This document shows, piece by piece, positions 1 to 51,000 of a stretch of 64,000 nucleotides of DNA. Source of the DNA: an uncultured bacterium (lineage in GTDB: Bacteria; Chlamydiota; Chlamydiia; Chlamydiales; SM23-39); the NCBI GenBank assembly GCA_964594545.1, contig CAZQNB010000001.1, positions 23,358 through 87,357 of the forward strand, read 5' to 3'. The position numbers are program-made. Each line of letters starts with the position of its first letter. Positions within the stretch are counted from its first letter, which is position 1.

Positions 1-3000
1 CAAGCGCTGAAAAACGGCCCAAATCCGTTTCTAAATCATGCTTATAGGAAAAGTAGGAGGGCAGCCATCTGACGCGCGCCTGCGCATTTTCTGCCAGCAG
101 CTTTTTAAAAGCATCGGCTCCGTTTGCTTTGACATATTCATCCGGGTCTTTGAAGGGCGAGAGCAGATGAGGAGGAAGAATGAAGGCTTTGATTCCGTTC
201 TTTTCGAGAAGATCGGAGGCTTTCTTTGCTTTTTCCAAAGAGCCTATTTCACCTTTGCTATCTTTGGAATCGTTGTCAAAGGCGATAATTACGCTTTCGA
301 TCTCATAGATTTTTAAGCTTTCAATGTGTTTGGACGAAAGCTCTCCTTGTCCAGTGGCGGCTATGTTTTTAATACCTAAGCTTGGAAGATAGGCGGCATC
401 GGGCAGCCCCTCTACTAAAATGAGCTGTTTTTCCCTTCTGCATCTGTAAATATTGAATGGGTCGTCTTTTTTAAGGCCGGATGTATAGCTCCAGCGATGG
501 ACTTTTCCTTCTGCATCGGCTATCCCTTCTTTCACTGCAGCTCTTTTTGCAAATCCGGAAATCTTTCCGAATCTATCTCTGTAGGGAAGCGCTGCGCGGA
601 ATAGATCCCCGCCGTTTCCATTGAGCTTAATCGAGGCTGCTTCGTGGTGTTTTTCCTTGGGAAGCTTGGATTTCAGATACTTTCTGATGTCGGCATCTTC
701 GGGCCAATAAATCCACTCTGTCGATTGCAGTTTTTCCGGATCGCATCCCCGGACGTTGACTAAGTAATCGAAAGCTTCTTTTCCTTTCGGCGAGAACAAA
801 AGCTCTTTTCCATACTGGAAGACCATCTCGTAGAGATGGGCCAAAGGATAGGACGGCTTGGAATCCGGCGCCGAGAAGCCCCCTCTTTGGATTTCTTCGA
901 GAAGATCGGATCGGAATGTCTCGGCGAGATATTTGCAGGATTCAATGAAATTAAGTCCTTTTTCTCTTTGGACAAGCTCGATGATGTCGAAAGATTCATT
1001 GCAGCTGAAACAGTGGAGATGGCTCCATCCCGGGCCTAGCTTGCAGCATTGGGAGCTTTTCGAATCGTGGCCGGCGATGCATTTTCCTACTAAATATCCT
1101 CCTGTCGGCTTCAGAGAGAGTTTATGGCGGAGATCGAGGTGGTCGATGACATCTTCTATCCGTATTGAAGCTTTCAGTTTTTCTTTAGCTAGATTGCCGA
1201 TCATGCTGCATTCCCTTGGAGTGTTTATCTGTTGTTGTTTTGCTCTTCTTCCATATTGATCAGCAATTGGATTGCTTCGCAGATCATTTCTGATTTTTCT
1301 GTGGCTCTCCCCTGCAGGATCCGGTTTGCATAGAGGTCATTGAATGCTTTATGGATGTCTTCCCGCAAATTGAAAGTCATTTTGCATGTAGGAATCCTCT
1401 GGTTTTTAGAAGGCTTGCTTAAAATGGTCGGCTGTCTGGCCGGCTGATGGTCCAGTTTAACATCCAACTGGGCCTCCATCCTTCCAACAGGGTGGACTGG
1501 TGTATGGCCAGCTGGATGGATTTGTGGAATAACAGCTTGCTGGAAGACGGGGGATATGGGTGCCTGTGCTTCTGGATAAACGGCTGCATGGCTGGTAGGG
1601 TTCATGGGTTGCTGGACATCCAGCTGGCTGGGTTGTTGAATTTCTGGATTGTTTTCTTGCTGGCTTTCTGGTTTGCCAACCGCCTGATCCCCAAACATTT
1701 CCGATAAGCCTATCTTTTTCTTTTCATTGGCTTGGAGCTGTTTTTTAGTTTTTTCTTTCAGTTCATTAATTGACGACATTGGTTAATCTCCCCATAACTT
1801 CTTTCACTAAATTGTGGTATGCTTCCGCTCCCGAACATTTTGGATCGTGGTCGAATACTGCTTTGCTGGATTCCTGCGCTTCGCTCAACTTGACATTCTC
1901 TGGAATCTTAGTGTCGAAAACTTTCTCTCCGAAAATATCTTTCAGCGCATCTAAAACGCGTCTTGAAAGGTTGCTGCGGGTTTTGTAGAAGGTGAGAAGA
2001 ACTCCCATGATGTCCGCATGATGTTCCACAAGGCTGCCTGCTTTTTCATTCGTGCAGTTGATTGATTCCATGAAGGATTGAATGCCTGCTAGGCTGAAAA
2101 AGTCTAATTGCACAGGAAGAATGATGTGGTTTGCTGTTAGAAAAGCATTCGCCAAGAGGGTATTGAACGTGGGAGAGGTATCGATAATGATGAAGTCGTA
2201 CTCTGCATTTTTTAGTTTTTTCCGAAGAACGAATTCCTTAGCGGTTGTCTGCGCCAGTTTGACTTCAGCAGCTGAAAGGGAGTTGTCCGAAGGGATCACA
2301 TGCAGATTTTTAATGTACGATGGCTGAACGACATCTTTGATAGAGCAATTGTCTTGGCATAAAAGCTCCGCAACCGTTTGGCGGTTATCAGTCTTGATTC
2401 CTAGACCTAAACTCGAATGTCCCTGCGGATCCAAATCGACGAGAAGAACTTTTTTGCCTGCGCGGGCAAGCCCTGCGCTTAGATTGATGGAAGTAGTCGA
2501 TTTTCCAACTCCTCCCTTTTGATTCGAAATGGCTATTTTGTGCATCAGTTGAGTCCTTGCATTCCATGAGTCCTTTGATTTTCCCCAACTTTAAAATAGG
2601 ACGATATTTAAGTAAACAGTGAATTGATGATTTACTGGAATTAGGGGTATTGCTAAGATGAAAACACTTTAGCAAAACCGTTAGACGAGGAAGGTAATGG
2701 CGAAAAAAAGCGGCAAGGAAAATTCCGAAAGTCTCGAAAAATCGAAAAGAGCACGCATTACATTGGAATGTTCTCAGGAAATTAGAAAATCCATACGGAT
2801 TAGCGCGGCGCAGGAAGATAAAAGCATGAATGATTTCATTTTATCGATTGTTCTGGAAAAGATGCAGAAAGATAAAGAAACAGCCCAATCGCCGGCATAA
2901 TAGCCGGATCGATCAGCTGTAAAATTCAGCATTGCGGGTCAAAAAATATAAGAAAATGCAGAAAATCTGCAAAAACAAGAGATAAAATCTCCTAAAAGCT

Positions 3001-48000: not shown

Positions 48001-51000
48001 TGGTGAATACAAGCAGTAAAGTGCATCCGTCTACTTTACCTAGCCTCATACACTTTTGTATTTGCGTACAATGCTCAAGTTTTTGTGATAAATAATTTAA
48101 TATAAATAGGGAAACAGCTGTTTCCCTATTTAGTTCTATAGAAAGAACTCGCCTTAGAATGACCGCTTAGCCTCTCAAAAAGGATGGCCCTTTTCGTTTA
48201 ACTTTTATATAATGTTCATGTTGAATTTTTTTCTTGGCTGGTCGTTTCTTGGCTGGGTAATTGCTCTTGTGTGGGCACTTATGAAAGAAAAGAAGGCTTA
48301 ATCTCTAAGCGGGAAATATGCTCATCTACTGTCTAGATAGACCACACCTGATAGATGATTTTTGCAATATGGAAACAGCCGCTCCCTTATTTAAACACAT
48401 TTGCTTAGTTTTATGACGGGATAAGGATCGGTAGGCATCGTTTTTTTATATACTTCCTGTAAAGACTCGAAATGCCTACGATCATCAATAAGATCGACCA
48501 GTTAAATATTGTTTCTGAAGAGCTTAGTTCTGGCAAGAACGCTGGAATCAGAGGAATTAAAGCCACTCCAGCGCCGCATGCAGCAATGCACTCTATATTT
48601 ATGTAGTATTTCCAAAACTGCTTTCTGGCATGAATCTGTTTTTCATTAAGCATGCTTTCCTTTTTCCAAAGAGGAGCTGTCCATTGCAAAAAAAGACGGC
48701 AGACAATTAGACAAATAGCCAAGAGGATGCACATAACAGCACCGATCACAATCATCGTTGCTTGAGATTCAAAGCTCGCAATCAAACTTCCTAAAAAAAA
48801 CATCATCGACACTTTAGGAAGAGTGAATCCTGCCAACCATAGAAATATCCCGATTTTCTTCTGTTTTTGTGCAACGAAATATGCTCCCACAACAATACCT
48901 ATAGCACCTAGAAAATATTGGGCTGCATCAAAGACTTCCAAACTTTCGGCAGTTAAAAAATTGTAGGTTGCATGCAAACAGGCTAACGCAGTTGCAATCC
49001 AAATCTTAACCGTGTTCGATTTACCCATAAAAAATTCCTTTATGTTTTTAATTTCTATGAAACCCTTCAAATTCAAGATATTTGTTTAATTCCTGCTGGC
49101 TTAAAGACGGTTTGAACCGGGACGCTTCTTCCACAAGGAGATCCATTGAAATGAGCGTATTATCCTGCAAAGCCTTCAATGCTGCGTTGTTTGCGATCAA
49201 TTTTAAATCGGATGAAATAAGGCCCTCGGTCATTCCAGCAAGGGCTTCGATATCAATATCGCTGCTGATCGGCCTTTCTTCTAAAAGCAGATGGAATAGC
49301 TCGCGCCTTGCTTCCCTATCAGGAGGGGGGATGAAGATTCTCTTATCCATCCTTCCAGATCTAAGAATCGCGGGGTCTATTCTTTCCGGAAAATTCGTGG
49401 CACCGATAACTAGAACTTTTTTCTTAACGCTGCCTTCCATGTGCATAAGGAACTCGCTGATTTCTGCTTTGCGGTATTGTTCGCATGAAGAAAGGCTGTC
49501 TCTTCGAGGCATGAGGCCGGAAATCTCATCTACGAAAAGAACGCAGGGGGCGATTTGTTCCGCTTTGCGGAATGCCTGCACGATGTTGTTCGATGTTGCA
49601 TGTATGTAGGGGCTTCCCACCGTTCCCTCGCTCATTTCAATGAGTTCCGCCCGCAGCGCTTCCGCTAGTTTTTTTGCTATGAATGTCTTCCCGCATCCTG
49701 GAGGTCCGAAAAACAGAATCCCGTTAGAAGGCGTAACACCGTATTTTTCATAAGCTTCCCAATTCAAAAATGGCTGGATCACATCCCGGATGAGAGTCTT
49801 TTTCAGCTCCGCCATTCCGGCAATAGCATCCAGTCCTCTTCTTTGAATCAAATTTTTCAGCCTTTCAGGAATATCCCCTTCTTTGTGGTCGGGGTATCTT
49901 TTCCCTATGATTTCAAGCCCTCCGGCAAACAAGACTTCATGAGGTATGTCCCTGCTTTTGAGCTTCTTCGCTATCTCTGCATCATGAAAGAGATAAAGAT
50001 ATTCTCCGCTGTCTAGGAGAAATGCCTCGACGAACTGCTGTTTATCGACTCTTTTCAAAATTCTCGACCCGCCCGGCAGCACCCAGCCTGGAGGAAATGA
50101 TGGTTTGGATATCTGCGTCATGAATTTTTCTCCAGGTCGATTAAATAATCTGAAACATCGGAATATCCCGCTTCCCTCATTTCTTTCAGGATAGCCTGCG
50201 CAATCTGCCGGTCGGAATATCCCTTGCCTCTTAAGTTTTTAAGCCCGTCTGAATAAAGGATATCAAGCCATTCAATGGCTTCTTTCTCTTGCGAGGCCAA
50301 GCCGTAAGAAGAAGAGGATGAGGATTTTGTCTGATAGCTGCTGCTTTTGTACGATTTATTGGAAGCCGGCTTGTCGTTATCCATGATTACAAAAAAGTAG
50401 AACAGAATCGCAGCTATCCATCCTATCCATTTCCACATTTTCCTCTGAGTAAGCCCGTAAATCCGCCGGTATAGCACTTTGCAGCAGCTCGCAATTCCAA
50501 AATGGCTCATCACTACCGCCGAGTCTGGATCCGTTTGCTGAGAGACCATTTTTTCTATGATTTTCAAGTAAATATCGTGGCTGGAAATCAAGTCTGAAAG
50601 CTCGCATTTTTCCAAAGAAATAGAGAAGCTGCTGATTTCTTTTTCCAAATCAATCAGTTCGGGCTCTGGATTATCTTCAGTGGGGACTGTCCAAGTAGGG
50701 GACAGGCTTAATAAAGAAATGCGTCCTTTCACTATTTCAGACACATGCTCGAAAATATCGATGCATTTTTTGTAGTTATTCCGATTCAAAAACCCGTCTA
50801 TAGCAAGAGTTTTTATATTGAATTTCTTTTGGGAAAAGAGCTCGTGCCCTTTGCTCATCATCAAAGAGCTGTAGTTGATCAGAAGCTGGATCCGGTTGGC
50901 TGCCGACGATTCAGAAGCTTCCGAGGCAAGCTCTTTATCCAGCTGCAAATAAGCGCTCTTTGCTTCCTCGAATCTTTGTTCTTCGACTAAATCCTTAATA

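Follow-up and report, generated by a model that had tools for sequence, protein, structure and literature searches.

An intact minimal-myophage gene set in a chlamydial megaplasmid family: a putative phage-plasmid lineage

Introduction

The stretch of DNA described here (the window, 64,000 nucleotides in all, from contig CAZQNB010000001.1 of assembly GCA_964594545.1, an uncultured member of the Chlamydiales) carries the virion and packaging genes of a contractile-tailed phage, a partition and replication block, a recombinase of the kind found on Chlamydia plasmids, and two blocks of cargo. We are highly confident that it belongs to the megaplasmid family represented by the plasmids of Criblamydia sequanensis, Rubidus massiliensis, and Protochlamydia massiliensis, and we read it as ~64 kb of a low-copy circular megaplasmid of that family. 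The conserved core of the family appears to be the entire genome of a temperate phage of the Pam3-like “minimal myophage” type, with a late operon (DUF1064, methylase, TerS, and TerL, then portal, head, tail, baseplate, and fibers), an early RecT/exonuclease module, and ParA, a phage-type primase-helicase, and an iteron region. Cargo varies at two hot spots: downstream of the pGP7/8-type integrase, in the interval between TerL and portal, and between the early region and DUF1064. A first-pass annotation had placed a complete phage gene set joined to plasmid genes at 1-48026; the gene set stands, and the element itself continues past both ends of that interval.

Virion and Packaging Genes

Gene families were assigned with PHROG and Pfam profile scans of the open reading frames (ORFs) in the window, together with PDB sequence searches for the capsid and sheath. 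A colinear head-neck-tail-baseplate-fiber module occupies positions 3025-29917 of the minus strand, the strand on which all the virion and packaging genes lie. Its head section (24458-29917) consists of the portal (28460-29917), MuF (27606-28457), a DUF2213-type protease (26170-27477), a cement protein (25400-26182), and a PF09950-type major capsid protein (24458-25387), and matches PHROG 264, 563, 530, 324, and 146. In the PDB, the capsid protein matches 9kmg/9kzj at 1e-42 and the capsid of Pam3 (8hdt) at 1e-31. Four small ORFs follow at 22889-24457, one of them weakly DUF4054/E217_gp27-like in Pfam, and these are syntenic with the head-tail adaptor and connector genes of relatives.

The neck terminator (22172-22723), a DUF3383-type sheath (20283-22163) whose PDB matches include Pam3 (2e-18), and a PhiTE-type tube (19831-20265) come next; together this stretch matches phrog_280, phrog_205, and PF23961. 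The tail assembly chaperone, a G/GT analogue (phrog_1613), spans 19200-19834 when its -1 ORF is included, with the zero-frame product at 19358-19834. The -1 ORF extends from 19598 to 19200, where it stops at the start of the tape measure, and a slippery run of T7G4 lies at ~19457. The tape measure itself (18130-19203) is 357 aa long and matches the PHROG tape-measure families.

Baseplate genes fill 12447-18133, with matches to PHROG 6, 120, 196, 349, and 817 and to the Pfam Dit_like and spike N-terminal domains. They encode a Dit-like tube initiator (17486-18133), a Pam3 gp18-like protein (17166-17486), the hub (16302-17165), the spike (15655-16335), a gp25-like sheath initiator (15204-15566), a gpJ-like wedge (13222-15207), and a further wedge protein (12447-13202). 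With its PF09950-type capsid and cement, DUF3383-type sheath, PhiTE-type tube, and simple baseplate, the module is of the Pam3/E217-like minimal-myophage type.

The tail-fiber or receptor-binding region (3025-12437, with PHROG tail-protein matches) holds a 693-aa fiber with Collar and DUF6242 domains (7973-10054), a 229-aa phrog_1574 protein, a 308-aa protein without an assignment, and small tail proteins; neither the 308-aa nor the 693-aa protein has a match in the PDB by sequence search. Two sets of paralogs lie here, at 4304-6523 and at 6525-7193/10120-10797. The 241-, 246-, and 250-aa proteins are 35-44% identical to one another, and a 222-aa protein is 65% identical to a 225-aa one, which suggests that the region may encode two alternative receptor-binding sets.

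The start of the late operon (44344-48026) sits 14 kb from the head-tail module. It contains TerL (44344-45693), a putative TerS called from its position and a weak PHROG match (45686-46171, E=0.0045), a ParB_N-DNA methylase (46155-47456), and DUF1064 (47589-48026), with Pfam matches for all except TerS. The full myovirus module that had been described, from TerS and TerL to the fibers, is thus supported by PHROG and Pfam, with TerS as its weak call. The genes are not, as had also been claimed, mostly coupled by ATGA or TAATG overlaps: junctions of this type number six, against six other overlaps and 11 gaps of 20 nt or less. Scans for promoter and terminator consensus sequences between 41 and 48.5 kb gave nothing above shuffled expectation, and the window holds no Rfam family and no tRNA or tmRNA gene.

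Replication, Partition, and Recombination

The window opens inside a primase-helicase gene on the minus strand (1-1204), which runs off the left end. Translation confirmed that this is the N-terminal part, 400 residues of a 781-aa protein with Zn-ribbon, Toprim, and DnaB_C domains. The complete gene is present on L025, a 42.8-kb contig from run SRR12762274 that is 100% identical to window positions 1-12545 and reaches 8.2 kb further left. The protein is 77% identical to the “DnaB-like helicase” of the Criblamydia plasmid and 27% identical to the Chlamydia pGP1 helicase, with which the C-terminal helicase domain alone aligns, no more closely than with other DnaB proteins.

A ParA partition ATPase (1766-2545, minus strand; Pfam AAA_31/CbiA/ParA) lies between the primase-helicase and the fibers. 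In a best-hit comparison its top two matches are both chlamydial plasmids, those of Criblamydia (65%) and Protochlamydia naegleriophila (60%), followed by generic Soj/ParA proteins at ~41%; its exact sequence is indexed in 80 blocks of a public collection. Downstream of ParA, and overlapping it by 14 nt, is a gene for a 184-aa protein (1225-1779, minus strand), which may be a partition adaptor. The first-pass annotation had recognized parA, a ParG-like gene, and a primase beside the fibers, and of these ParA and the primase hold. The ParG label does not, as the 184-aa protein has no match in Pfam or PHROG and its sole homolog in PLSDB, at 47%, is on the Criblamydia plasmid.

Iteron-like direct repeats, ~10 copies of TGTAAACAnAAACGACC...TCGATCAC in 1.2 kb (L025:15315-16536), sit within a 1.7-kb non-coding stretch 2.8-4.0 kb left of window position 1, on the sequence that is 100% identical to the left end of the window. 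They adjoin the primase-helicase gene and the gene for a 548-aa protein, and relatives, among them the Criblamydia plasmid (at 54.2-57.3 kb), have clusters of the core motif at the equivalent position. The repeat stretch is likely to be a replication origin or a centromere.

At 41275-42252, on the minus strand, lies a tyrosine recombinase (Pfam Phage_integrase) that had been likened to the pGP7-D/pGP8-D integrases of Chlamydia plasmids. This placement is borne out: in a tblastn search of PLSDB (E<=1e-8), 123/123 plasmid matches belong to the Chlamydiota, none of the best matches falling outside that phylum, with identities of 81% to Criblamydia, 58% to Waddlia and Simkania, and ~50% to Chlamydia pGP8-D. 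Between the integrase and TerL is an AbiEii toxin/AbiEi antitoxin pair (42787-44273, minus strand; Pfam, and PADLOC AbiEii at 1e-71 and AbiEi at 5e-79), a type IV toxin-antitoxin (TA) system that probably serves as a plasmid addiction or defense module. The element thus combines a complete virion and packaging gene set, with its weakly called TerS, and a module for partition and autonomous replication made up of ParA, the primase-helicase, the iteron-like repeats to the left of the window, and the AbiE TA pair.

A Family of Circular Chlamydial Plasmids

Megablast searches returned one annotated relative, the circular 89.5-kb plasmid of Criblamydia sequanensis CRIB-18 (LK031773); a megablast of window positions 1-25000 against phages gave zero matches. 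The Criblamydia plasmid has the same gene order: primase-helicase, ParA, fibers, baseplate, sheath, capsid, portal, cargo, integrase, AbiE, TerL, TerS, methylase, and DUF1064. Over the aligned backbone segments, DNA identity is 66-81%, and at the protein level the capsid is 96%, the integrase 81%, and the primase-helicase 77% identical. The two replicons differ entirely in their cargo, which in Criblamydia encodes metal efflux and arsenic resistance and in the window a nitric oxide (NO) reductase, ric, glgC, uhpC, an Hsp70-like operon, and drug-modifying enzymes. Most of the fiber genes are unrelated, and the Criblamydia ars block, between the replication and early modules, is missing from the window element. 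The Criblamydia record is circular and is typed in PLSDB as non-mobilizable, with no relaxase or type IV secretion system (T4SS), and the primase-helicase is its sole annotated replication gene.

Two further members come from cultured hosts. Plasmid pRm2 of R. massiliensis measures 80,897 bp; PCR showed it to be circular, and its copy number is 2-3 (PMC4791399). The plasmid of P. massiliensis is 92,055 bp, circular, and present at ~2 copies (PMC5583166). A search with the capsid protein, taking one genome per GTDB species, found 95-100% identity on 12 contigs of metagenome-assembled genomes (MAGs), 8-350 kb in length. The label is chlamydial for six of these, “uncultured bacterium” for five, and Verrucomicrobia for one, where a binning error is probable. 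Plasmid mis-binning is the most likely explanation for the presence of the element in MAGs labeled Verrucomicrobia and Desulfobacteraceae (L011/L027, JAFEGE010000043.1, and L022, CAIVVZ010000002.1), whose capsids are 100% and 94% identical to that of the window.

None of the 12 contigs is the source of the window, to which the closest shows 97% identity across its virion module. Identity to this closest relative is a mosaic, at 97% for the virion genes, 88% for the integrase and AbiE, and 73% for the PDC-S27 gene beside the portal (described below), which points to modular recombination. The virion module of JAFEGE010000043.1 (87,956 bp) is 97% identical to that of the window, and by coordinate arithmetic the two contig ends map to adjacent, slightly overlapping positions inside gpJ; we therefore regard this contig as a closed circle. 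The four complete members fall between 81 and 92 kb despite their unrelated cargo, and this narrow range suggests a packaging limit near 90 kb.

Intactness and Selection

The virion genes were compared across a panel of 13 related loci, using pairwise Nei-Gojobori estimates of the ratio of nonsynonymous to synonymous substitution rates (dN/dS) for 23 genes, with 7-9 loci per gene. Every structural gene in the covered stretches aligns essentially at full length, with the exception of genes cut by the end of a locus and the split portal and MuF of one locus (L018), to which we return below. In the window, no essential phage gene is disrupted, which agrees with the first-pass annotation.

The synonymous rate (dS) ranges from 0.02 to saturation. 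Wherever dS exceeds 0.3, dN/dS for the 23 genes lies between 0.00 and 0.11; the higher values, reaching 0.29, are confined to four short genes compared with the near-identical L011, where dS is 0.02-0.05. By module, dN/dS is 0.00-0.11 for the head, 0.00-0.06 for tube, sheath, and neck, and 0.00-0.07 for the baseplate. The connector genes are 83-99% identical at the amino acid level over the chlamydial loci, with dN/dS mostly 0.01-0.10 and a maximum of 0.29 against L011 (dS 0.02-0.03). The capsid protein reaches 100% amino acid identity at 89.5% DNA identity, and the frameshift heptamer of the tail chaperone is identical in eight chlamydial relatives while the flanking synonymous sites vary.

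A decaying prophage remnant is excluded because the genes are full length, dN/dS is low, and the frameshift heptamer is kept. Nor is the module a tailocin or contractile injection system, a reading ruled out by the presence of the capsid, portal, protease, and TerL under purifying selection. The fibers follow a course of their own: most of the region has no counterpart in the Criblamydia plasmid, while the adjacent genes match, a pattern that we read as the module turnover usual for receptor-binding genes.

Origin from a Phage of About 42 kb

Capsid homologs at 70-80% identity are abundant in metagenomes, on contigs that cluster at 41-44.5 kb. These contigs have different break points in different samples, and in them TerL directly adjoins the portal. 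In the 42-44-kb phages, the late operon opens with DUF1064, methylase, TerS, and TerL in the order found in the window. Such uncultivated phages (L067/L104/L110, L004-L006, and L047-L052) are the nearest outgroup of the chlamydial element; they carry DNA-modification genes (a TET-associated glycosyltransferase, a Mom-like gene, and a ParB_N protein) and DUF932.

One of them, IMGVR_UViG_3300012943_000017 (41,890 bp), was reconstructed from three overlapping loci (L067/L104/L110) and is circularly permuted, its structural module wrapping around the contig ends. It shares with the chlamydial element not only late genes but also early ones: RecT, a 199-aa protein, a PD-(D/E)XK exonuclease, and an 87-aa protein, at 44-57% identity. 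The early genes in common lie to the left of the window. The 87-aa protein (L025:20448-20711, minus strand; 44% identical to its counterpart in the 41.9-kb phage) has a sub-threshold match to the Hc1 family of chlamydial histone-like proteins (E=0.002). ParA, the primase-helicase, the 548-aa protein, and the integrase are not detectable in this phage.

Since the late module and the RecT/exonuclease early module both recur in the 41.9-kb phage, the chlamydial element can be read as a whole ~42-kb phage genome with three additions. These would be the block of ParA, 184-aa protein, primase-helicase, 548-aa protein, and iterons, between the fibers and the early genes; the integrase, TA system, and cargo, between TerL and the portal; and another cargo region, which separates the early genes from DUF1064. 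We read the family as probably a phage-plasmid lineage whose source was a Pam3-like myophage of ~42 kb.

Cargo and Accessory Genes

Next to the portal, on the plus strand, is a candidate PDC-S27 gene (30420-31853) encoding an AAA ATPase with a winged helix-turn-helix (HTH) domain (Pfam ATPase_2/HTH_5; PADLOC PDC-S27, E=1.7e-79). Homologs with 72-94% identity occur in four related loci, and in several of these the position beside the portal is kept. The cargo around the gene varies between relatives that keep it. The gene may be a core regulator or an exclusion gene rather than cargo.

Cargo block 1 (31945-41143, both strands; Pfam assignments) lies in the 9.4-kb stretch between the integrase and PDC-S27. 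It has 39% GC, compared with 47% in the virion module. It begins with a split uhpC-like MFS transporter gene (31945-33353), and the frameshift reported for uhpC is there: the gene consists of two ORFs with the break at a T8 homopolymer, which could be an assembly error. The block also contains two copies of DUF488 and glgC (39863-41143). Between 35060 and 38997 a nitric-oxide detoxification pair, ric on the plus strand and the quinol-dependent NO reductase NorB on the minus strand (36691-38997), flanks an insertion sequence (IS) element, an IS5-family transposase with ORFA and ORFB at 35750-36602. The ric product, at 232 aa, seems essentially full length, contrary to its description as clipped by the IS element.

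Cargo always starts directly after the stop codon of the integrase gene. The relative L011 lacks cargo block 1, and just 44 nt separate its integrase from PDC-S27. No att-like core was found, in that no direct or inverted repeat of at least 8 nt is common to both borders of the block.

Cargo block 2 (48411-64000, both strands; Pfam, PADLOC) is part of the same replicon; this right-hand stretch, from 48.4 to 64 kb, is further cargo and not chromosome. It starts with an overlapping four-gene operon on the minus strand (48411-54514) that encodes a 221-aa protein without an assignment, an AAA+ ATPase (IetA-like in PADLOC, 4e-33), a 641-aa protein without an assignment, and an 824-aa Hsp70/MreB-like protein. 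The operon may be a conflict or defense system carried as cargo. A 498-aa protein follows on the same strand (55525-57021), combining a Cas4/RecB-like nuclease, a helix-hairpin-helix (HhH) motif, and RNase_H_2. On the plus strand, 58180-64000 holds genes for putative small-molecule-modifying proteins: a GNAT, GrpB, a fusion of a chloramphenicol-phosphotransferase-like domain with GNAT, an alpha/beta hydrolase, and an APH/GNAT fusion. The last is followed by the start of an ABC transporter gene, also on the plus strand, which runs off the right end at 64000.

Is the Element an Active Phage?

If the element is a phage-plasmid in the functional sense, its life cycle can be sketched from its genes. 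It would be maintained as a plasmid prophage, partitioned by ParA and its 184-aa partner, replicated by the primase-helicase from the iterons, and resolved from multimers by the integrase, with AbiE acting as an addiction module. On induction it would produce contractile-tailed virions into which TerS and TerL would package plasmid DNA by a headful mechanism, and these virions would transfer an otherwise non-mobilizable replicon among chlamydiae in a common amoebal host. We lean slightly toward the view that the element still functions as a phage carrying its whole replicon. The phage-plasmid reading gains from the purifying selection on the virion genes, the conserved frameshift site, the iteron-like repeats a little beyond the left end of the window, and the phage type of the one replication gene annotated on the Criblamydia plasmid; the similar lengths of the complete members, which a limit on capsid size would lead one to expect, and the turnover of the fibers also speak for it.

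Several observations weigh against this view. No lysis cassette was found: Pfam and PHROG scans of late-region ORFs gave no endolysin, holin, or spanin, although remote homologs may have been missed, and a hydrophobicity scan of the window found small membrane proteins among antisense ORFs only, with none on the sense strand. In this respect the first-pass annotation, which saw no recognizable endolysin or holin, was right. In the early region, two adjacent genes on the plus strand (L025:17021-17719) encode a 100-aa signal-peptide protein and a 76-aa lipoprotein with an LSGC lipobox; these exported proteins could be spanin-like or exclusion proteins. There is likewise no clear repressor: the nearest candidate is the 548-aa protein encoded outside the window, in which an HTH gave a weak CI-like match (E=6.6e-4). 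Between TerL and the portal, the integrase, the TA pair, and up to 22 kb of cargo break up the late operon. The two electron microscopy (EM)-based descriptions of cultured hosts that we searched, those of R. massiliensis and P. massiliensis, make no mention of phage particles (PMC4791399, PMC5583166).

One relative may also be a damaged copy. On L018 (CAVVXH010000002.1, a 350-kb nanopore MAG contig) the portal and MuF are frameshifted. Within L018:5474-7788 each of the two genes is split by 1-nt insertions, and both insertions in MuF are an extra G before CAAG. The splits may be a systematic nanopore or methylation artifact rather than decay.

Size is the further difficulty. The complete replicons measure 81-92 kb, whereas genomes that encode a capsid with 70-80% identity run to 41-44.5 kb, and the T=7, 68-nm head of Pam3, a capsid relative with a solved structure, holds 54.5 kb. 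The tape-measure protein, at 357 aa, compares with 358-363 aa in the homologs of 42-44-kb phages, and the cement and protease lengths are likewise unchanged. If the head is still T=7, a replicon of 81-92 kb could not be packaged whole; the T number is not readable from sequence, and such a replicon may not fit in one head.

These size figures are the starting point for the most serious rival, namely that the element encodes a phage-derived particle system that has outgrown a T=7-type head and packages ~45-55-kb headfuls of plasmid or other DNA, in the manner of a gene transfer agent (GTA) or a transducing particle. The particles would then be retained for spreading cargo or parts of the plasmid. 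The unchanged tape-measure, cement, and protease lengths fit this account, as do the failure to find lysis or lysogeny-switch genes and the strong selection on the virion genes all the same. Known GTAs, however, have particle genes without a replication or partition module, whereas here the virion genes are accompanied by replication, partition, and recombination modules of the element's own. The complete members differ little in size, which points to a packaging limit near their own length, and the wider capsid family includes larger heads. On balance we hold the GTA-like reading to be unlikely, if worth keeping in mind. It is less unlikely than the notion that a defective prophage integrated into a pre-existing chlamydial plasmid, leaving non-functional passenger genes. 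That is how earlier descriptions viewed the phage genes (PMC7846284, PMC4208316), and the failure to find lysis genes and a late operon broken by cargo would fit such a remnant; but all 23 of the virion genes compared are intact and under the purifying selection described above, the frameshift site is conserved, the late and early phage modules are both retained, and the sole plasmid replication gene is itself of phage type. We consider a defective passenger improbable.

Least probable of all, to the point that we give it little further thought, is the reading in which the window is part of a prophage in a chromosome, or of a contig mis-binned from a bacterium outside the chlamydiae. The Verrucomicrobia and Desulfobacteraceae labels of two related MAG contigs could be cited for it, as could the 350-kb contig on which one relative lies. 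Against it, the one relative in PLSDB is a plasmid from a cultured chlamydia and has the gene order of the window element; the best matches of integrase, ParA, and primase-helicase are all chlamydial plasmids; six MAGs are labeled chlamydial; and neither tRNA genes nor att-like repeats were found. The concern, raised at the outset, that the contig might prove to be an ordinary chromosomal prophage of another phylum is not borne out by these results.

Returning to the functional phage-plasmid, its boldest form would have active tailed phages of the Chlamydiota whose virions carry cargo-laden replicons of 80-92 kb across chlamydial families within amoebae. This we advance only tentatively, as a possibility that falls short of even odds. 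It would need either a head larger than that of the T=7-type 42-kb ancestors, or two headfuls re-joined by the element's own RecT/exonuclease.

Comparison with Known Systems and Earlier Descriptions

Like the phage-plasmids P1, N15, and SSU5, the element combines a tailed-phage gene set with ParA, its own replication module, and a TA system, and it has a conserved phage core and variable accessory genes. Phage-plasmid sizes have a mode of ~100 kb (Pfeifer et al. 2021, PMC7969092), and the element lies near it. The megablast against phages gave no sign of a sequence relationship to the described phage-plasmid groups. Unlike P1, N15, and SSU5, it has a host in the Chlamydiota, carries cargo inside the late operon, has no lysis or immunity genes identified, and is known from its genes alone.

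With Pam3-type minimal myophages and the 41-44.5-kb phages the element has in common colinear head, neck, tail, and simple-baseplate modules. The 41-44.5-kb phages differ in being half the size, in having TerL beside the portal, and in that ParA, the primase-helicase, the 548-aa protein, and the pGP7/8 integrase could not be detected in them. The element resembles the 7.5-kb Chlamydia plasmid (pGP1-8) in its recombinase of the pGP7/pGP8 family (~50% identity), in a ParA whose function would be pGP5-like, and in a helicase domain of the DnaB type. It has ten times the size of that plasmid, with a primase-helicase fusion and a whole phage genome, and no homologs of pGP2, pGP3, pGP4, or pGP6 were seen in it.

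It is important to remember that the plasmid family and its “phage genes” are already known from work published between 2014 and 2021, and that the window adds a further member. Bertelli et al. (2014) described 7% of the Criblamydia plasmid proteins as “of phagic origin” (PMC4208316), and Bou Khalil et al. (2016) reported that pRm2 encodes 20 phage proteins (PMC4791399). Köstlbacher et al. (2021) defined a “phage group” among plasmid gene families, which they took for a putative prophage; they also inferred that whole plasmids had passed between Parachlamydiaceae and Criblamydiaceae, offering no mechanism (PMC7846284). Fragments of these megaplasmids are already listed in IMG/VR as viral contigs. 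Our full-text literature searches found no paper that terms these plasmids phage-plasmids or recognizes the complete virion module, and the main text of Pfeifer et al. (2021) does not mention the Criblamydia plasmid (PMC7969092). The claim that a tailed phage or phage-plasmid in this lineage would be notable still holds, although its novelty is lessened by the publication of the family and its phage genes for three cultured chlamydiae.

Implications for Chlamydial Biology

To our knowledge, the characterized phages of chlamydiae are small single-stranded DNA (ssDNA) microviruses. If the phage-plasmid reading is true, the element would be the first active tailed phage for the Chlamydiota and would add a double-stranded DNA (dsDNA) tailed virus to the virome of the phylum. 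A virion-forming phage-plasmid would also provide a mechanism by which non-conjugative megaplasmids move between chlamydial families. The reading can be tested directly in the three hosts available in culture. Genetic manipulation of chlamydiae is difficult; a functional element of this kind would represent a natural vector for large cargo, including genes for NO detoxification, metal resistance, and drug-modifying enzymes.

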